Assembly (NCBI GenBank): GCA_036519575.1 | Contig: DATDKZ010000162.1 | Coordinates: 1,628-65,627, forward strand | Length of the DNA stretch: 64,000 bases | Reading direction: 5' to 3' | DNA from: Actinomycetota bacterium | Lineage (GTDB): Bacteria; Actinomycetota; UBA4738; HRBIN12 | Part shown: positions 260 to 64,000 of the stretch, piece by piece | Position numbering within the stretch: position 1 is the stretch's first letter | Layout: each line of letters starts with the position of its first letter | The notes under the pieces: model-generated | Told to the model about the DNA's origin: nothing | What the model saw: the letters and a program-made list of their open reading frames with translations, nothing else | The model's database searches: none | Translations under genes and position numbers: made by a program

Positions 260-2470
260 ATGGCCCAACCGATACAACGCGACCGGCCCCACCGGGGACT
301 GCTTCCGGTTCGGCTGCTGCATGCGGCGGCCGGGCGGACACTCCCCCGCCTGCCCGCGAGATGGCGCACGCGCCTGGACGCCCCGCTCGAACCCTCCCGC
401 CTGGACGCGCGTGCCGAACGAGCGATTGGGCACTACGAGGCGCTTGACGGGGAGAGTCGGTTCGGACTCGTTCTGATCGTGGGGATCTTCGTGTTCGCCC
501 TGGCCTTCCTGCCGGTGGTGATGGCCGTGACCACCTCGCTCGCCATGGTCAAAAGCCACTACCTGGTCAACGCCGGCGATCCGCTCAAGCTCCCCCCGCT
601 CCCGCAGCGATCGACCATCCTGGCCAGGGACGGCTCGGTCCTCCAGCACGTGTATTTCGGCGAGAACCGGGTGGTCGTGCCGATCAACCGGTACCGCGAG
701 AGCACCATCGACGCCGTCCTGGCCATCGAGGACGACGGGTTCTTCCAGCACGGTCCGCTGGACTTCTCGGCCATCGTCCGCGCCGCCGTCACCAACCTGA
801 TTGCCGGGGGGATCGTGGAGGGCGGCTCGACCATCTCCCAGCAGCTGGTCAAGGACACGGTCACCGGTGACGCTCCCACGCTCGCTCGGAAGATCCGGGA
901 GGCCGCTGACGCCATCCGCCTGGAGAACACCTACTCCAAGGAGCACATCCTGGGGATGTACCTGAGCGAGGTGTACTTCGGCCACGGCGCATACGGCATG
1001 GCCGCGGCTGCCGAGTACTACTTCGCACGGCGGGCCCCAGAGCTCTCGGTGGCCCAGGCCGCCCTCCTGGCGGGCATGATCCGCTCGCCGTCGTACTACG
1101 ACCCGCTGACCAGGCCCAAGCACGCGCTGCACCGCCGCAACACGGTCCTGGCCCGGATGCTCGAGCTCGGCTGGATCACGAGCGCCCGCTACGACCAGGC
1201 GTCGTCGGCGCCGGTCGTCCTCTCCGCAGCCGATCGGAACGTGGCCCAGGCCGCTCCGAACTCGTACTGGACCCAGTACGTCGTGGACAGCTTCCTGTCC
1301 AACCCGGCCTTCGGTCCCACCGTGAAGGCTCGGATCAGGGCTCTGTATCAGGGCGGCCTGAAGATCTACACGACGCTCGAGCCTTCCATGCAGCGACAGG
1401 CCGAGCAGACCCTCCTGAACCGCATGACCGGGCCAGAGCTGCCACAGTCCGCCCTGGTCAGCATCGTCCCCCAGACCGGCGCAATCATGACCATGGCCGT
1501 CGGGAACGCCCCGTACGGGCCGAGCCAGTACAACCTGGCGGTCGATCCCGGCGGCGGACGGACCGCGGGCAGCGCATTCAAGGTGTTCACCCTGGCCGCC
1601 GCCCTGGAGGCGGGGATCTCGCCGAACGCCGTCTACAGCGGGTACTCCCCCAGGACCATCCCGAACTGCGGCGGGGGAGAGACCTGGACCGTGCATAACG
1701 CTGAGCCCTTCGGGGGTGGAAGCTTTCCGCTGTGGCTGGCCACTGCGGACTCGGTGAACGTCGTGTTCGCCCAGGTGATCGACCAGATCGGGCCGGAACG
1801 CGTGGCGGAGGTGGCGCAGAAGATGGGGATCACCACCGAGCTCACGCCGGTATGTCCGCTCACGCTCGGCACCTCACCGGTCTCGCCACTCGACATGACC
1901 TCTGGCTTCGCCACGCTGGCCAACGACGGTGTGCACTGCCAGCCCTACGCCATCGCCGAGGTCGTCTCGAGCACCGGAAAGACCGTCTACCGCCAGAAGC
2001 CAGAGTGCTCGCGAGCCATCCCGGCATGGGTGGCCCAGCAGGAGACCCACATGCTGGAAGGGGTCGTCGAGTTCGGTACCGGCACCGCGGCCAACATCGG
2101 GCGGCCCCAGGCGGGCAAGACCGGAACGGGCCAGGACTACCAGGACGCGTGGTTCCTCGGCTACGTGCCCCAGCTCGCCACCGGGGTGTGGGTGGGCTAC
2201 GCCAGGGCCGAGATCCCCATGCCCTACGTCCCGGGGTACGGGACTGGGTTCGGAGGGGTGCTCGCCGCACCCATCTGGCACGACTTCATGCTGATGGCCA
2301 CCCAGGGGATGCCCGTCGAGTCCTTCGTCACACCTTCCGTCTCGTATTACACCCCGGCTCCGCCGCCGCTCTCACCCAGCCCGAGCCCCACCCCGGCCCC
2401 CTCGACCGGACCGCCGGGGAACGGGAACAACGGCAACGGCAACGGAAACGGATACGGGCACGGCCACTGA
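260..2470 (+). CDS. Class A penicillin-binding protein (bifunctional transglycosylase/transpeptidase, PonA-like), Pro-rich tail ending GNGNNGNGNGNGYGHGH
   Basis: 736-aa ORF: Arg-rich cytoplasmic N-terminus, one TM helix, GT51 motifs (EDDGFFQHGPLD, GGSTISQQLVK), transpeptidase SAFKVF (SxxK), Pro/Gly/Asn low-complexity C-terminus. Confidence 0.85.
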   Translation: MAQPIQRDRPHRGLLPVRLLHAAAGRTLPRLPARWRTRLDAPLEPSRLDARAERAIGHYEALDGESRFGLVLIVGIFVFALAFLPVVMAVTTSLAMVKSHYLVNAGDPLKLPPLPQRSTILARDGSVLQHVYFGENRVVVPINRYRESTIDAVLAIEDDGFFQHGPLDFSAIVRAAVTNLIAGGIVEGGSTISQQLVKDTVTGDAPTLARKIREAADAIRLENTYSKEHILGMYLSEVYFGHGAYGMAAAAEYYFARRAPELSVAQAALLAGMIRSPSYYDPLTRPKHALHRRNTVLARMLELGWITSARYDQASSAPVVLSAADRNVAQAAPNSYWTQYVVDSFLSNPAFGPTVKARIRALYQGGLKIYTTLEPSMQRQAEQTLLNRMTGPELPQSALVSIVPQTGAIMTMAVGNAPYGPSQYNLAVDPGGGRTAGSAFKVFTLAAALEAGISPNAVYSGYSPRTIPNCGGGETWTVHNAEPFGGGSFPLWLATADSVNVVFAQVIDQIGPERVAEVAQKMGITTELTPVCPLTLGTSPVSPLDMTSGFATLANDGVHCQPYAIAEVVSSTGKTVYRQKPECSRAIPAWVAQQETHMLEGVVEFGTGTAANIGRPQAGKTGTGQDYQDAWFLGYVPQLATGVWVGYARAEIPMPYVPGYGTGFGGVLAAPIWHDFMLMATQGMPVESFVTPSVSYYTPAPPPLSPSPSPTPAPSTGPPGNGNNGNGNGNGYGHGH

Positions 2471-3285: not shown

Positions 3286-4371
3286 ATGGAAGAAGTTGCG
3301 CGGGTGATCCTCGCCCTCGAGGAACACGATGTGGCCGAGGAAGTCATGCACTTCCTCGACCGGACCGGAAGGGCCCGGGTGGTGGCGACCGCCTCGGACG
3401 AGCATCAACTGTCCGAAGCCATTCGACAGCTGGAACCCGACGCCGTCGTGGGTTCGCCCCGGCTCGCAACCTCCGCACGACTGAACGGGAGCGCGTTGCT
3501 CGCCGTCGACACGACCGAGACAGTGCAGACTCTTCGGCGAGCCCTCAATGCGGGAGCGAGGGGCTTCTTCCTCTGGCCGGCCGATCGAGGTGAGCTGGCC
3601 CGCGCCGTCGCCCGCGTCTTTGCTCCCGGAACCCGGGAGCGTCACACGCTTGGACGAGTCGTCGCCGTCCATGGACCACGCGGGGGCGCTGGGGCGACGT
3701 TCCTGGCCACTCACCTCGCGGCGAGCTTCGCACGGCGTGAGCTGCAGTGCGTCCTGGTGGACCTCGATCTGGGGATCGCCGACATCGGACCTGCCGTGGG
3801 GGCTCCCGTGGACGGATCGCCGAGGACCATCGCCGATGCCGTTCCCATGGGCGAGGAACTCACCGCCCGCCACCTCGACGACCTCCTGTGGCCACATCCC
3901 GATGGGTTCCGGGTGCTGTTCGGACCCGCGGACGTGCAGGTGGCGGAACGGGTCACGGCTCGGGACATCGGTCCGGTCCTCGAGGCAGTACGGTCGGCCG
4001 CCGACGTCGTAGTTGTGCACATCCCCCGTGGCATGGACGACACGGTGAGGTTAGGGCTTGGCCTCGCGGATGTGGTGGTGATGGTGCTGGGACTCGACGT
4101 GCTGTCCTTCCGGGCCGCCAAGCGGGTCGTCGATGCCACGGGCCTCGACGATCGCTGTTCGTTCGTCGTCAACCGCGCCACCAGGCGAGAGATCTCGCCT
4201 GACGACGTCAAACGGGTCTTCGGGCGTTCCCCGGTCGCCGTGATCCCCGTGGACCGAAGGGTGCCCGCTGCCCAGGATCACGGTCGTCTGCTCCCCGCGC
4301 GAAGGAGGGCCGGCCGCTCGGTCGACCGGCTGGCCGCGAAGCTGCTCGAGCGGTTGGAGGAAGGCTCCTGA
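3286..4371 (+). CDS. tadZ: TadZ/CpaE-like pilus assembly ATPase (N-terminal receiver-like domain fused to a ParA/MinD-type ATPase)
   Basis: 361 aa: degenerate REC-like N-terminus, then deviant Walker A VVAVHGPRGGAGATFLATHLA. First gene of a tad locus; GGAG lies 5 nt upstream of the ATG. Confidence 0.8.
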   Translation: MEEVARVILALEEHDVAEEVMHFLDRTGRARVVATASDEHQLSEAIRQLEPDAVVGSPRLATSARLNGSALLAVDTTETVQTLRRALNAGARGFFLWPADRGELARAVARVFAPGTRERHTLGRVVAVHGPRGGAGATFLATHLAASFARRELQCVLVDLDLGIADIGPAVGAPVDGSPRTIADAVPMGEELTARHLDDLLWPHPDGFRVLFGPADVQVAERVTARDIGPVLEAVRSAADVVVVHIPRGMDDTVRLGLGLADVVVMVLGLDVLSFRAAKRVVDATGLDDRCSFVVNRATRREISPDDVKRVFGRSPVAVIPVDRRVPAAQDHGRLLPARRRAGRSVDRLAAKLLERLEEGS

Positions 4372-5669
4372 TGCGTGCCGATGCACTCCTGGAGGTTCGT
4401 CGCGGCCTGCACGAGCGGCTGCTTCGTCGGGTCGATGCTCGTGGACTGGAGGAGGTGTCGCGAACCGAGCGGCGTCTGCGGGTGCGCGAGGAGGCACTGG
4501 CCATCCTCCGCGAGGAGAGGCACATCCTGCCGCGGGGTGTGCTGACGAAGGTCATCAACGAGGTTTCGGATGCGGTCGTCGGGCTGGGACCCATCGAGTT
4601 CCTGCTCAAGGATCCCGAGGTCACCGAAGTGATGGTGAACGGGCCCGACGACGTCTACGTGGAGCGGAAGGGGCGGCTCGAGAAGGTGACGGACGGTCTG
4701 TTTGAGGGGGAGGAGGCCGTCCTGCACGTGATCGAGAGGATCGTGGCCCCGCTCGGCCTTCGGGTCGATGAGTCATCACCTTGGGTGGATGCGCGACTGT
4801 CGGACGGCAGTCGGGTGCACGCGATCATCCCGCCCCTTTCGCTCTGCGGTCCCACGCTGAACATCCGCAAGTTCTCTCCCGTGCCCTTCACGCCGGAGGA
4901 ACTCCTGGCGAGAGGAACGCTTGGGCCACGCGCGCTCAGATTTCTGGCCGCCTGTGTTCGAGGTCGGGCGAACCTGATCGTCTCGGGAGGAACGAGCTCG
5001 GGCAAGACGACATTGCTCGGCGTCTTGTCCACGTTCGTCCCCGACGAGGAACGATTGGTGACCATCGAGGATGCGGCTGAGCTCCGCCTGGTCAAGCCAC
5101 ACGTCGTCTCGCTCGAGGCGCGTCCCGCGAACGTGGAGGGCAAGGGCGAGGTGACCGTGCGCGACCTGGTGAGAAACGCGCTTCGCATGCGGCCGGACCG
5201 GATCATCGTGGGTGAGGTTCGAGGGGGAGAGGCCATCGACATGCTCCAGGCCATGAATACCGGCCACGATGGATCGCTGTCGACGGCTCACGCGAACTCA
5301 CCTCGCCATCTTCTTTGGCGGCTGGAGACCATGGCGATGATGTCGGACGTCGGGCTGCCGGTCGGTCACGTGCGCGCGCAGGTGGCCTCGGCCATCGACG
5401 TCATCGCGCACATGGCCCGATTGCCCAGCGGACGACGAGTGGTTCTCGAGGTGGCGACCGTCGATGGGATCCACGAGGGGCAACCCGTCCTCACGCCACT
5501 GTTCCGGTTCCGCCCCCGGCTCGGTACTCATGGCTTGTTCGAGTCGACCGGGGTCGTCCCCGAGGTGGCGATCCAGCTCGCAGACGTCGGGGAGGACCTC
5601 CCCGAGGAGCTGTTCGCCCCAGGGCCAGATGGGGACACGTTCGAGGTCGGAAACGTGGAGAGCGGATGA
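4371..5669 (+). CDS. tadA: TadA/CpaF type II/IV secretion ATPase
   Basis: 432 aa: Walker A GGTSSGKTTLLGVL plus Asp/His boxes of the VirB11/CpaF family. Start overlaps the tadZ stop (ATGA). Confidence 0.9.
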   Translation: MRADALLEVRRGLHERLLRRVDARGLEEVSRTERRLRVREEALAILREERHILPRGVLTKVINEVSDAVVGLGPIEFLLKDPEVTEVMVNGPDDVYVERKGRLEKVTDGLFEGEEAVLHVIERIVAPLGLRVDESSPWVDARLSDGSRVHAIIPPLSLCGPTLNIRKFSPVPFTPEELLARGTLGPRALRFLAACVRGRANLIVSGGTSSGKTTLLGVLSTFVPDEERLVTIEDAAELRLVKPHVVSLEARPANVEGKGEVTVRDLVRNALRMRPDRIIVGEVRGGEAIDMLQAMNTGHDGSLSTAHANSPRHLLWRLETMAMMSDVGLPVGHVRAQVASAIDVIAHMARLPSGRRVVLEVATVDGIHEGQPVLTPLFRFRPRLGTHGLFESTGVVPEVAIQLADVGEDLPEELFAPGPDGDTFEVGNVESG

Positions 5670-6499
5670 GGCCCGAGGTGGCCGCGACGGTCCTTGCCTC
5701 GTTGCCCGGTCTGTTCGCAGCCGTGGCGGCCGATCTGATGGAGCGAGAGCGCGTCCGAGCGCGAGCGGGGGTGAGGAGGCGCGAACGAAGTTGGGGTGGC
5801 GGTGGACGTCGCCTTCGTGCGCCAACCCTTCGAGCGCTCGGCGCGCTCGGAGGCATCGTGGTCGGAGTATCGGTCGCCGGCCTCCCGGGCGCTGTGATGG
5901 GGGGAATCGCGGCGATCATCGTCCCGCTCGTCCGGGCACGGCGGAAGATGGCTCATCGCGCGGAAATGATGGAGGAGCAGCTCGGCCAAGCGGTGTCGGT
6001 GATCGCCGCCGGTCTCCGGACCGGCCTGTCGTTGCTCCAGGCCATCTCACTTTCCGCAGATGAGGTGGGTGCTCCGCTGGGGGCTACGCTCCGCGGGCTC
6101 GCCGACCGTGTTTCGCTGGGGGTTCCGTTCCCACGATCCCTGGACGGTTGGGTTGCCGAGGTTGGCGTCCCGGAGGCCCGGCTGATGGCAGGAGTGCTCA
6201 GCCTTCACCGCCGGACAGGTGGCGACCTGCCCGTGGTTCTCGATCGACTTGCCCGCACCCTCCGAGATCGGCAGGCCGCGGCGCGCGAGGTCCGATCCCT
6301 GACCGCGCAGGCTCGATTGTCGGGCGCGATCCTGGGCTTCCTGCCGATCGGCTTCTTCCTGTTCCTCTCGGTCACGTCGCGACGGGACATCGCCGCCGCC
6401 TATCACTCGTCGACGGGAGCCACGGCCATCGTTGCCGGCCTCCTCATGCAGGGCACGGCGTTCCTGTGGATCCGCCGGCTTCTTCGGGTCGAAGGGTGA
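5666..6499 (+). CDS. tadB: TadB pilus assembly inner-membrane protein
   Basis: 277 aa, polytopic, GspF/T2SSF-like. ATGA overlap with tadA; followed by tadC. Confidence 0.75.
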   Translation: MRPEVAATVLASLPGLFAAVAADLMERERVRARAGVRRRERSWGGGGRRLRAPTLRALGALGGIVVGVSVAGLPGAVMGGIAAIIVPLVRARRKMAHRAEMMEEQLGQAVSVIAAGLRTGLSLLQAISLSADEVGAPLGATLRGLADRVSLGVPFPRSLDGWVAEVGVPEARLMAGVLSLHRRTGGDLPVVLDRLARTLRDRQAAAREVRSLTAQARLSGAILGFLPIGFFLFLSVTSRRDIAAAYHSSTGATAIVAGLLMQGTAFLWIRRLLRVEG

Positions 6500-7341
6500 T
6501 GGACGCGTATCTGGCCCCTGTGGTTGCCGCCGCTGCGGCCATGCTGGCCGCCTCGGCGGCGGCCACGACGGTTGACCGGACGCTCGCTTCCCGCCTGGGA
6601 GCTCCGCCAGTCAACGGGTCGAGTGGCAGGCTTCGGCGCGTGGTGGGCCGCCTCGGCGCCGCTCGCCTCGGTCGTCGCCTTCCGGGCAGGGCGGCCACCC
6701 TCCGGCGGATCACCCATGCCCGCGTGGCGGTCACGGAGGACGAGATGGCGGGGGCGAAGATCCTTTCCGCTAGCCTCCCTGCCCTTGCGGCGCTGTCCGC
6801 GCCCTGGCCCGCCCCATTGCTCGCTCCGGTGCTGGCCGGATGCGGCCTCCTGCTCCCCGACGTCCTGCTCGTCCGGCTCGCTCGCCGCCGCATCGAGCGA
6901 GCCGACCGAGAGGTGCCCCTCCTCCTCGATCTCCTCGCTGCGGCCTCCTCCGCCGGGCTCTCGGGCCAGCTCGCCCTTCGCCGGGCGATCGAGTCGACGG
7001 AGGGACCCCTCTCGGAAGAACTTGCCGAAGTGATCCGGTCCGTGGACTTGGGCGCTCGGTGGCGCGACGAGCTCCGCAGCGCCTCGGACCGATTGCCCCT
7101 CCCGGACCTGCGAAGGGCGGTGGCCACGATGGGCCGGGCCGAATCCCTCGGGTCGTCCCTGGCCGACGCCCTCTCGGAGCTGGCGACCGAAGTCCGCGAC
7201 GCACGACGTTCGGCCGCCACCGAGCGCGCTCGGAAAGCGCCCGTCAAGATGCTGTTCCCTCTGGTGTTCCTCGTGCTCCCGGCATTCCTCCTCCTCACGG
7301 TGGTGCCCGTCTTGATCAGCGCGCTGCAATCGATCCGCTGA
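6499..7341 (+). CDS. tadC: TadC pilus assembly inner-membrane protein
   Basis: 280 aa T2SSF-like membrane protein. ATG overlaps the tadB stop (TGATG). Confidence 0.75.
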   Translation: MDAYLAPVVAAAAAMLAASAAATTVDRTLASRLGAPPVNGSSGRLRRVVGRLGAARLGRRLPGRAATLRRITHARVAVTEDEMAGAKILSASLPALAALSAPWPAPLLAPVLAGCGLLLPDVLLVRLARRRIERADREVPLLLDLLAAASSAGLSGQLALRRAIESTEGPLSEELAEVIRSVDLGARWRDELRSASDRLPLPDLRRAVATMGRAESLGSSLADALSELATEVRDARRSAATERARKAPVKMLFPLVFLVLPAFLLLTVVPVLISALQSIR

Positions 7342-23491: not shown

Positions 23492-23565
23492 TGGAGCGGG
23501 CGAGGGGAATCGAACCCCCGTCTCGAGCTTGGGAAGCTCACGTTCTGCCATTGAACCACGCCCGC
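23492..23565 (-). tRNA. tRNA-Gly (anticodon CCC), 74 nt, CCA encoded
   Basis: Cloverleaf folded by hand: acceptor GCGGGCG/CGCCCGC, anticodon arm TGAGC-TTCCCAA-GCTCG, T-arm GGGGG-TTCGATT-CCCCT, then CCA. Confidence 0.85.
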
Positions 23566-62164: not shown

Positions 62165-62983
62165 ATGCTGCTCCGCGACGTGGTCCCTTGCGCCTACCTC
62201 CGCGCGTTCCAGCCTCTGGAGGCGTTCCCGCTCGATGAGCAGGCCCGGTGGGAGCGCTACATCGTCGGAGGAGGGATGCTCCGCCGGCCGCGGCCCACCT
62301 ACCGGCAGTGGATGAGCGGCCGGCGCCTCGGCGTCCTGGCCGCTTCGGAATCCGACGGCGCCGATATCCGACTCGAGAAGGGCGCCTACTTCGTGTGCCC
62401 ATGGCGGACCAGGCTCCGGGTGCTGGCCAGCCTGTTGTCCTTCCGCGAGGCTGCACAGTTCGAGGGGAGCGAAGCGTTCGTGAGCGACCGGGAGGCCCGC
62501 CGGGCTTCCAGGGAGCTGGCCAGGATCCGGCGGCGGGATCCGAAGGCCGTCTCGTTCATCATGCAGAGCCCCTGGCACGTCCCCGTCAGGTGGTTCGTGC
62601 TGTTCGGGGAGGGCGATCGGCGGCTCGAGGAGCACGGGGGCCGCCATCGGCTCCGGTACCTGACCACCGTGCGCAAAGCGGCGCGTCGGGCTGAGCGGGC
62701 CATCCCCGGGCTCCGGCGGACGGACCTGGGGCCGGTGGCCGACATGATCGTCGAGCTCTATGAGTGGCTCGGTGCCTTCGACCGCCGATCGCTGCTCGAG
62801 CTGGATTACGGTGGCCTGAGCGACCTCATGACATGGGACGAGCTCGACGACGATCATTCTGCCCGCGACATCCAGACGGCGCTGAAGGCTCTCTCGTCTG
62901 AGGAGTTCCCGCGCTCGGCCGAGCTGTACCAGTCGGTCATCAGCCGGTGGGCCGAGGTCCGGGGCCACGAGGCCTTGAACTGA
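62165..62983 (+). CDS. Conserved hypothetical protein (272 aa)
   Basis: Clean ORF diverging from the E1alpha gene; no motif I can name. Confidence 0.45.
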   Translation: MLLRDVVPCAYLRAFQPLEAFPLDEQARWERYIVGGGMLRRPRPTYRQWMSGRRLGVLAASESDGADIRLEKGAYFVCPWRTRLRVLASLLSFREAAQFEGSEAFVSDREARRASRELARIRRRDPKAVSFIMQSPWHVPVRWFVLFGEGDRRLEEHGGRHRLRYLTTVRKAARRAERAIPGLRRTDLGPVADMIVELYEWLGAFDRRSLLELDYGGLSDLMTWDELDDDHSARDIQTALKALSSEEFPRSAELYQSVISRWAEVRGHEALN

Positions 62984-63009
62984 CGGGCCTCGCCCACGCC
63001 GCGACCTCG

Positions 63010-63082
63010 TGGCCAGGGGCAGAATCGAACTGCCGACACCGCGGTTTTCAGCCGCGTGCTCTGCCAACTGAGCTACCTGGCC
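63010..63082 (-). tRNA. tRNA-Phe (anticodon GAA), 73 nt, CCA not encoded
   Basis: GGCCAGGTAGCTCAGTTGGCAGAGCACGCGGCTGAAAACCGCGGTGTCGGCAGTTCGATTCTGCCCCTGGCCA folds as a canonical cloverleaf with anticodon loop CUGAAAA. Confidence 0.85.
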
Positions 63083-63120
63083 GGACACGGTCACGCCGGC
63101 GCGAGCGCCGGCACTCCCAG

Positions 63121-63175
63121 CGCGGGTGACGGGATTTGAACCCGCGATTACCGCCTTGACAGGGCCTCCACCCGC
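63121..63175 (-). other. 55-nt tRNA-Asp(GUC)-like element lacking a D-arm (mini-tRNA or pseudo-tRNA)
   Basis: GCGGGTG-GA-GGCCCTGTCAAGGCGG-TAATC-GCGGGTTCAAATCCCGT-CACCCGC-G has a perfect 7-bp acceptor stem, tRNA-Asp-like anticodon loop CUGUCAA and a canonical T-arm. Positions 10-26 are absent. Confidence 0.3.
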
Positions 63176-63382
63176 GTCCTGAAGGTTACCGCACCGTCCC
63201 GCCGAATTGTGCTTGTCCAGCTGGAGCGGCGGATGGCTTCCCGGTTCGACCTGGTCCGTTTGGGGTATGCGGCGGGGGGACGGTGATGACGCCGCCTTGC
63301 AAATACCCATCGCATCCCCGTACGGTTAGCAGAGGAGCAATTCAAGGGAGGCCCGCGCGGGCCCGTTGACAAGGGGGTTGAC

Positions 63383-64000
63383 ATGCTTCGGAAGATTCTT
63401 TCTATCAGACTGATCGTCGTGCTGATCGTGGCGGTCGCTCTCAGCGTGCCGTTAGCAGCGACGGCGAGCGCGCCGTCCGGCTTCACCGATTCTCTCGTCG
63501 CATCTGTGGCGGCGCCCACGGCACTGGCTTTCACGCCGGACGGGCGCCTGCTCGTGACGAGCCAATCGGGGGCGCTTCAGGTCGTGCAAGACGGCACACT
63601 TCTTGCCACGCCGGCGCTCAATTTGGGGCCAAGGATCTGTTCGGACGACGAGCGAGGCCTGCTTGGCATCGCGACTGACCCGGCGTTCGCGACGAATCAC
63701 TTCATCTATCTCTACTACACGGCCGCCATTGCGACGGGCTGCGTGAATCGGGTTTCCCGCTTCGTCCTCTCGGATGCCAATATCGTCGATCCGACGAGTG
63801 AGATTGCCCTGCTCGACAACATCCCCTCGCCCGCAGGCAACCATAACGGCGGCGACATTCAGTTCGGCCATGACGGGTATCTGTATGTGAGCGTCGGCGA
63901 CGGCGGCTGCGACTACGACGGGGACAGCGGCTGCGCGGGGGACAACGCAGCAGCGCGCGATCTGAACGTCCTGCTCGGGAAGGTGCTGCGCATCACGAGC
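63383..64000 (+). CDS. Secreted PQQ-dependent sugar dehydrogenase (GSDH/SGL beta-propeller family), 5' part; continues beyond the window
   Basis: Signal peptide MLRKILSIRLIVVLIVAVALSVPLAATASA, then …ERGLLGIA…NHNGGDIQFGHDGYLYVSVGDGG…; RBS AAGGGGG; no stop before the window end. Confidence 0.65.
   Translation, partial: MLRKILSIRLIVVLIVAVALSVPLAATASAPSGFTDSLVASVAAPTALAFTPDGRLLVTSQSGALQVVQDGTLLATPALNLGPRICSDDERGLLGIATDPAFATNHFIYLYYTAAIATGCVNRVSRFVLSDANIVDPTSEIALLDNIPSPAGNHNGGDIQFGHDGYLYVSVGDGGCDYDGDSGCAGDNAAARDLNVLLGKVLRITS

Follow-up and report, generated by a model that had tools for sequence, protein, structure and literature searches.

A D-arm-less tRNA-Asp-like sequence beside an actinobacterial tRNA-Phe gene is very probably the attachment-site scar of an integrative element

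A 64,000-nucleotide stretch of an Actinomycetota contig (the window) contains, 38 nt upstream of tRNA-Phe(GAA) and on the same strand, a 55-nt sequence that looks like a tRNA-Asp without its D arm. From comparison with homologous loci in other assemblies (designated L001, L002 and so on), we consider it highly probable that this sequence is the displaced-fragment junction (P-O-B′, attR-type) of an integrative element in the 3′ half of tRNA-Asp(GUC). A tyrosine integrase would recombine the attP of the element, which carries a 44-nt copy of the 3′ part of tRNA-Asp, with the tRNA gene. Integration would restore a complete tRNA-Asp at the distal junction (B-O-P′) and leave the original 3′ end stranded by the old spacer and tRNA-Phe, now joined to the P arm. 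As the P arm carries 11 nt resembling a tRNA 5′ end, the junction would mimic a D-armless tRNA.

The original prediction had described the position of this sequence relative to tRNA-Phe, its stem, loop and T arm, and all of these were confirmed (Table 1). By segment it reads GCGGGTG-GAGG-CC-CTGTCAA-GGCGG-TAATC-GCGGG-TTCAAAT-CCCGT-CACCCGC-G. The acceptor stem (GCGGGTG/CACCCGC) forms 7 of 7 pairs and the T arm is intact and canonical; the D arm is absent, and the anticodon stem closing the CUGUCAA loop (anticodon GUC) is cut to 3 bp (GCC/GGC). The Rfam tRNA model (RF00005) aligned to it end to end with 27.3 bits (E = 0.0055 for 2 kb searched), less than 2 bits below the gathering score of 29, with the D arm deleted and 5 of 5 anticodon-stem pairs flagged as non-canonical. 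ARAGORN, run on the window, left it uncalled. Taking a tRNA to be a cloverleaf that scores at or above the curated threshold and is called by a tRNA finder, we do not count the element as one. The Rfam mascRNA model gave 18 bits, compared with a gathering score of 42.5, and the fold z-score against shuffles was a modest –2.1. The likeness to a tRNA exceeds chance: the 55 nt equal linear positions 1–7, 10–13 and 33–76 of the tRNA-Asp of the lineage with zero substitutions. The predicted resemblance of the 3′ half to tRNA-Asp proved to be an identity, the last 44 nt matching the 76-nt tRNA-Asp(GUC) of the lineage at 44 of 44 positions, a stretch that begins with the final two bases of the 5′ strand of the anticodon stem and ends with the discriminator base.

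A comparison with orthologous tRNA clusters, called for by the original prediction, revealed intact 76-nt tRNA-Asp genes and both empty and occupied sites. The ancestral order in relatives is the DUF8083 gene followed, on the opposite strand, by tRNA-Phe, tRNA-Asp and tRNA-Glu. The DUF8083 proteins are 90% identical to that of the window in L001, L002 and L004, 71% in L005 and 70% in L008. Empty sites, with tRNA-Glu, a 76-nt tRNA-Asp and tRNA-Phe beside DUF8083, are present in L001, L002, L004 and L005, and L002 has the spacer of the window. The expected Glu-Asp-Phe order was seen in L001, L005 and L008. The tRNA-Asp gene, GCGGGTG TG GAGG AGCCTGGCCGT CCTC A CCGCC CTGTCAA GGCGG TAATC GCGGG TTCAAAT CCCGT CACCCGC G, is identical in L001, L002, L004, L008 and L011. 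The DNA 5′ of the window element differs from the tRNA-Glu and CACAACCGAAGACTC spacer of the relatives.

Several features of these loci may be recorded in their own right. The tRNA-Asp of the lineage has an 11-nt D loop (AGCCTGGCCGT), C2-G71 and A38. An encoded CCA follows the gene in L001 (1429–1507), L004 (3125–3203) and the regenerated copy of L011, and is absent in L002 and L008. The Asp-Phe spacers of the window, L002, L011 and L012 have a conserved GC-rich palindrome in common, GCCGGCGCTCGCGCCGGC, a candidate processing or structural signal of the tRNA operon. L003 (77% DUF8083 identity; 4817–5850 of a 132-kb contig) has tRNA-Phe alone at the locus, with no tRNA-Asp, tRNA-Glu or scar within 4 kb of it; the Glu-Asp pair can therefore reside elsewhere in this clade. 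Finally, two independent contigs, L006 (at 4002) and L007 (at 1788), end at the same base, at the GGCGG with which both the 3′ anticodon-stem strand of tRNA-Asp and the L008-type identity block begin. The coincidence suggests a fork in the assembly graph at the att identity block, caused by polymorphic insertion in those populations.

Table 1. Coordinates of the features at the window locus and at related loci.
Sequence	Feature	Position	Strand	Basis or remark
Window	tRNA-Gly(CCC), the sole other tRNA of the window	23492-23565		ARAGORN, Rfam
Window	DUF8083 flanking gene	62165-62983		Homologues in many uncultured Actinomycetota
Window	tRNA-Phe(GAA), intact	63009..63082	-	ARAGORN; Rfam RF00005, 69 bits; identical in all relatives
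Window	Host spacer Asp-Phe, 38 nt, putative B′ side of the attachment site	63083..63120	-	Near-identical to L002 and L011/L012
Window	55-nt tRNA-Asp-like element	63121..63175	-	Reads GCGGGTGGAGGCCCTGTCAAGGCGGTAATCGCGGGTTCAAATCCCGTCACCCGCG
Window	44-nt block, 3′ part of tRNA-Asp(GUC)	63121..63164	-	44/44 versus L001, L002, L004, L008, L011
Window	GCGGGTGGAGG, 11 nt, element-borne, equal to tRNA-Asp positions 1-7 and 10-13	63165..63175	-	Identical in L026 and L011/L012
Window	P-arm remnant, 84 nt of non-tRNA DNA in place of tRNA-Glu and spacer	63176..63259	-	BLASTN to L026
Window	PQQ-dependent sugar dehydrogenase gene, 5′ part	63383..64000	+	ORF; Pfam PF07995 relatives; runs off the window
L026	Integrase gene	145-819
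L026	Shorter tRNA-Asp 3′ fragment	1265-1296		GAGTTCAAATCCCGTCACCCACG
L026	Exact copy of the window 55-mer	1458-1512
L026	Putative P-O-P′ site	1373-1579		P arm matches window and L011 attR; P′ arm matches L011 attL
L011	Full tRNA-Asp	2818-2896
L011	55-nt copy	168-222
L008	Full tRNA-Asp	4523-4599
L008	54-nt short copy	3910-3963		GCGGGTCGAAGCCCTAAAGGGCGG...
L027	3′ fragment of another tRNA	6790-6850		...CTTCTAATCCTCAGGTCGCAGGTTCGAATCCTGCCCGGCGCGCA
L011	TTGCTGCCA-like repeats	2568/2580 and 153		tRNA-direction coordinates
L016	TTGCTGCCA-like repeats	4589/4601
L019	TTGCTGCCA-like repeats	2160/2172
L027	TTGCTGCCA-like repeats	6674/6686
L026	TTGCTGCCA-like repeat	1571

Occupied versions of the locus display both ends of the insertion. 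L011 and L012, one an NCBI WGS and the other a JGI contig, were obtained by scanning metagenomes for the acceptor strand followed by a short gap and the 3′ part of tRNA-Asp. L011 carries, in this order, a partial tRNA-Glu, a full tRNA-Asp, a 2.6-kb insert, a 55-nt copy with one mismatch to that of the window, a window-type spacer and tRNA-Phe. The spacer of the window resembles the one 3′ of the full tRNA-Asp in the uninterrupted L002 and 3′ of the short copy in L011/L012. In L008, a full tRNA-Asp is followed by an insert of ~560 nt and a 54-nt short copy, with tRNA-Phe 4 nt further on; the 5′ flank of this copy, GCGGTAACCTTCAGG, is that of the window, and the counterpart of GCGGGTGGAGG reads GCGGGTCGAAG. 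Both inserts are bracketed by a full tRNA-Asp and a fragment in the same orientation, so that the 44-nt block recurs as a direct repeat of the full gene; the window displays the fragment side alone. On homology, the 44-nt block is the putative displaced tDNA fragment, that is, the segment of identity between attP and attB.

The end of the L011 insert, ~350 nt from the short copy, encodes the frameshifted C-terminus of a tyrosine integrase (...VRLHDLRDGFAS...LGH...TMDTYAHV); the single ORF matched PF00589 weakly, and the stitched translation scored 32 bits (cut-off 27.1). Pfam scans of the 103-aa ORF of L008 and the 193-aa ORF of L011 returned no match. Homologous integrase genes precede the same site in L016–L019 and L026, and the order integrase, 101-aa ORF, diverged 55-nt copy, tRNA-Phe is common to L016–L025. 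In L027 the gene of a related integrase precedes a 3′ fragment of another tRNA, apparently Arg(TCT), that has no 5′ acceptor-like strand. The different tRNA suggests a switch of targets within the integrase family. Searching viral contigs with the family integrase yielded a single relative of 30% identity, and a pattern search of viral contigs for the mini-tRNA found no match.

For this integrase family, the called ORFs, of ~220 aa, cover the catalytic domain only (L026 1–819; L027 5546–6660; L016–L025). A SAM-like N-terminal ORF of 152 aa and the 219-aa ORF of L027 overlap by 4 nt, and in L026 the N-terminal domain lies upstream in a different frame. An identical 220-aa integrase ORF is present in 11 contigs of the L016–L025 group from different samples, with no N-terminal-domain ORF called upstream. 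Either recurrent decay or an integrase that is truly split could account for these calls.

L026, an independent JGI assembly, contains the exact 55-mer of the window away from tRNA-Phe, after an integrase gene and an ORF termed ORF179. BLASTN aligned window positions 63118–63259 with L026 1373–1515 (87% over 143 nt, E = 1.6e-45). For the P arm alone, the local alignment between the window and L026 scored 79, compared with 16.9 ± 2.3 for shuffles, none of 1000 reaching it; the P arms of the window and L011 share a 29-nt match (score 43; 0 of 1000 shuffles). On its 3′ side, the L026 55-mer continues into a P′ arm and not into the host spacer and tRNA-Phe. This P′ arm is homologous to the DNA that follows the full tRNA-Asp of L011 (score 33; shuffles 16.2 ± 2.3; 0 of 1000). 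Four configurations of the site are thus present in independent assemblies: attB (L002), P-O-P′ (L026), B-O-P′ (L011 and L008) and P-O-B′ (the window, L011, L012, L008 and L016). Because all four are observed, we read the 55-nt element as an att junction, and from these configurations and homologies we infer the recombination that would connect them.

The arms contain further candidate features. Pairs of TTGCTGCCA-type repeats, 12 nt apart, occupy positions –144/–132 in the P arms of several members, and a single copy lies at about +94 in the P′ arms; the background of TTGCTGCCA-like sequences in the window is 0.11 per kb. The repeats are consistent with arm-type integrase binding sites. In the P arm of the window the pair is unrecognisable. 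A second, shorter 3′ fragment of tRNA-Asp, GAGTTCAAATCCCGTCACCCACG, was noticed in L026 inside the called ORF179, followed by CTGGTCAGGGG, a sequence similar to that 3′ of the full tRNA-Asp of L008. Tandem accretion of several related elements with two types of P′ arm is likely in L026, because this second partial att copy (about 1265–1291) leads into an L008-type P′ start. The L026 site may therefore be an internal junction of a tandem array and not a free attP.

On the other side of the window scar stands a gene for a PQQ-dependent sugar dehydrogenase, probably cargo of the inserted DNA. Its product is 100% identical to HEY6678836.1 (210 aa, annotated as partial) on a 65,640-bp MAG contig, and GC content falls from ~0.70 to ~0.63 beyond the scar, at the dehydrogenase region, in keeping with an insertion. 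The dehydrogenase gene next to the P′ arm of L026 is 96.6% identical in nucleotide sequence to window positions 63704–64000. Relative to the site, the gene lies downstream in L026, where it adjoins P′, and upstream in the window, where it adjoins P, the two sides coming from different assemblies. This circular permutation is what Campbell-type integration, or elements arrayed in tandem, would be expected to produce. Homology between the window and L026 jumps from the end of the P arm at 63259 to the region upstream of the dehydrogenase gene, skipping the integrase and ORF179.

The source contig ends ~12 nt beyond the window and ~840 nt upstream of the 55-nt element, and these ~840 nt of insert hold no integrase gene. 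Since neither an integrase nor arm-type repeats are recognisable in the window, we regard the site as a presumably inert scar, or at most one mobilisable in trans, bordering a PQQ-dehydrogenase cassette, and not as a tRNA. With one junction visible, the window copy would qualify as an island through its homology to other assemblies. ARAGORN and Rfam found neither tRNA-Asp nor tRNA-Glu within the 64-kb window, and the original prediction had warned that, if tRNA-Asp(GUC) were not encoded elsewhere, this would be odd at the level of an essential gene. That concern lapses: L011 and L008 have an intact tRNA-Asp at the other end of the insertion, and the window contig ends ~840 nt upstream of the scar. 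By analogy, the working tRNA-Asp of the window genome should lie at the opposite end of the island, past the contig end and at least 2.3 kb upstream. The next att copy would lie ~2.3 kb upstream of the scar and would be the full tRNA-Asp, or a mini copy if elements stand in tandem; this estimate allows for the rest of the dehydrogenase gene (~644 codons in total) plus a P′ arm, by analogy with L026. Exact-protein look-ups found no record for the window DUF8083 protein or P0121, and recorded the E1-beta protein solely on contigs too short to span the locus. A contig pattern search with the flank GGTAACCTTCAGGNNGCGGGT gave one chance match, in a Rhizobiales coding region.

Three points count against reading the element as a scar: the single junction visible in the window, the possible tandem array in L026, and a 5′ acceptor-like strand, which typical displaced fragments do not have. 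Here, GCGGGTGGAGG pairs with the 3′ acceptor strand and so creates the D-armless look. Its match to tRNA positions 1–7 and 10–13 is too good for chance (a rough base-composition estimate gives well below 1e-4 at that position). The 11 nt belong to the arm of the element, because they are present in L026, and, being element-borne, they indicate that attP probably descends from a copy of the whole tRNA-Asp minus 21 bp. Two deletions, of 2 and 19 nt, would turn the 76-nt gene into the 55-mer; a single-deletion origin was rejected, as it would need a 21-nt deletion plus 2 mismatches.

We think it improbable that the element is a functional tRNA-like RNA co-transcribed with tRNA-Phe, be it a D-armless tRNA-Asp or a substrate of RNase P or the CCA enzyme (for example, a processing signal that lets tRNA-Phe mature normally despite the insertion). 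Such a role would fit its location on the same strand directly 5′ of tRNA-Phe, whose original promoter the insertion would displace, its Rfam tRNA scores of 27–28 bits, and the fold of acceptor stem, central hairpin and T arm common to three variants (window/L026, L011 and L008; z from –2.1 to –2.8). These scores are, however, below the Rfam gathering threshold, with no ARAGORN call, the anticodon stem has 3 bp, and no promoter or terminator signal was found in a scan of the tRNA strand of the window locus. In the L016-type copy the fold is lost (z = –0.5), and the L008 copy went undetected by the tRNA model. Among 4 distinct sequences, a number that gives a covariation test low power, 0 of 15 pairs changed on both sides, and variation broke three acceptor pairs and one hairpin pair. 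Selection for an RNA finds no support in these four sequences, a small sample. The armless tRNA-like RNA offered by the original prediction is thus disfavoured by the missing compensatory changes and by variants that break the acceptor stem.

A comparably slim chance attaches to the D-armless fold being a selected feature of attP. By bringing its own 5′ acceptor-like strand, the element would form an acceptor/T-arm minihelix both in attP and once integrated. As RNA, the minihelix could be an RNase P/Z signal that frees the integrase transcript and keeps tRNA-Phe maturing after the operon is split; as folded single-stranded DNA, it could, by analogy with integron attC sites, be a recombination substrate for single-gene cassettes such as the PQQ dehydrogenase.

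Marginally less probable still is a pseudogene formed in place, by loss of the D arm from the resident tRNA-Asp through internal deletions (2 + 19 nt) with no mobile element. The element does sit at the exact position of tRNA-Asp relative to tRNA-Phe, with the 38-nt spacer of L002, and two deletions of a 76-nt gene yield all 55 nt. Its 5′ flank, however, is the arm common to integrase-bearing insertions and not tRNA-Glu plus spacer, the similarity of the window arm to the Glu region being of a size reached by 108 of 1000 shuffles. Moreover, L026 has the identical 55-mer away from tRNA-Phe, and L011 and L008 hold both the full gene and a short copy. Of the deletion-derived pseudo-tRNA of the original prediction, there remains a relic that derives from tRNA-Asp and almost certainly does not work; its origin by deletion in the resident gene does not stand, given the element arm at its 5′ flank and L026. 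A relic of tRNA-Glu, represented by TTGCAAGGCGGCGTCA upstream of the element, was considered separately and rejected as a chance likeness by the same 108 of 1000 shuffles; Rfam gave no further tRNA-like match at E ≤ 10.

An assembly artefact of a short-read MAG, whether a collapse of 21 nt or a chimeric join, is scarcely credible: the metagenome-assembled contig does end 840 nt away, and L006 and L007 break inside tRNA-Asp as if the locus were hard to assemble, but the exact 55-mer with the same 5′ flank recurs in the independent JGI assembly L026 and one-mismatch versions in NCBI WGS and JGI contigs (L011, L012), so that, with L008, four independent assemblies speak against the lesion once suspected.

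Reading the element as an att junction removes a false alarm, in that the genome has not been shown to lack tRNA-Asp and an armless bacterial tRNA is without evidence. It also brings to light a family of integrative elements, not described before, that target tRNA-Asp in uncultured soil Actinomycetota and are small and for the most part decayed; all four of its att configurations were recovered from metagenomes. For annotation, a caveat follows: where the element arm is tRNA-derived, an att junction can look like a truncated tRNA and miss the Rfam tRNA threshold by less than 2 bits.

The likeness to metazoan mitochondrial D-arm-less tRNAs and to mascRNA, consisting of an acceptor stem, a T arm and a short extra hairpin, is superficial; unlike them, the element has no intact anticodon stem and no covariation, and its context is a bacterial chromosome. 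Another parallel is provided by CIMEs (cis-mobilizable elements), stretches of DNA with att sites at both ends that lack genes for recombination and are frequently accreted in tandem with an ICE (PMC5704250, PMC7563491). CIMEs resemble the PQQ-dehydrogenase gene, which appears bounded by att sites (in L026 on one side, in the window on the other) with no integrase of its own, and the accreted att copies of L026. They differ in that the two flanks of the dehydrogenase gene come from separate assemblies and that the arm-type repeats in the window are degenerate.

The attP sites of pSAM2-type actinomycete elements share tens of base pairs with the 3′ part of a tRNA gene, as is the case here. Actinomycete integrative (and conjugative) elements and actinophages, such as pSAM2, SLP1 and pMEA300 (PMC2440964), also have in common with this family an actinobacterial host and an integrase of the lambda (tyrosine) family. 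Unlike pSAM2-type elements, the inserts described here are tiny (~0.6–5 kb) and decayed, with no replication or transfer genes seen, the hosts are uncultured Actinomycetota, and the target is tRNA-Asp.

An established precedent is that of islands targeting tRNA genes, which leave a regenerated tDNA and a displaced fragment that mark the island ends, the signature used by Islander (PMC4383910). Like tyrosine-integrase islands of this kind (PMC4383910), the loci of the relatives have a full tRNA at one end and a 3′ fragment in the same orientation at the other, an identity block running from the anticodon-loop region to the 3′ end, an integrase gene beside one of the att sites, relatives whose site is empty, and copies that are partial or in tandem. 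Unlike in those islands, the window copy is without an integrase and displays one junction, and 11 nt of the P arm equal the 5′ acceptor strand plus the beginning of the D stem, which gives both the junction and attP a D-armless look. The probable scar belongs to a familiar kind of feature and does not represent a novel tRNA type; its one curiosity is the resemblance of attP to a D-armless tRNA.
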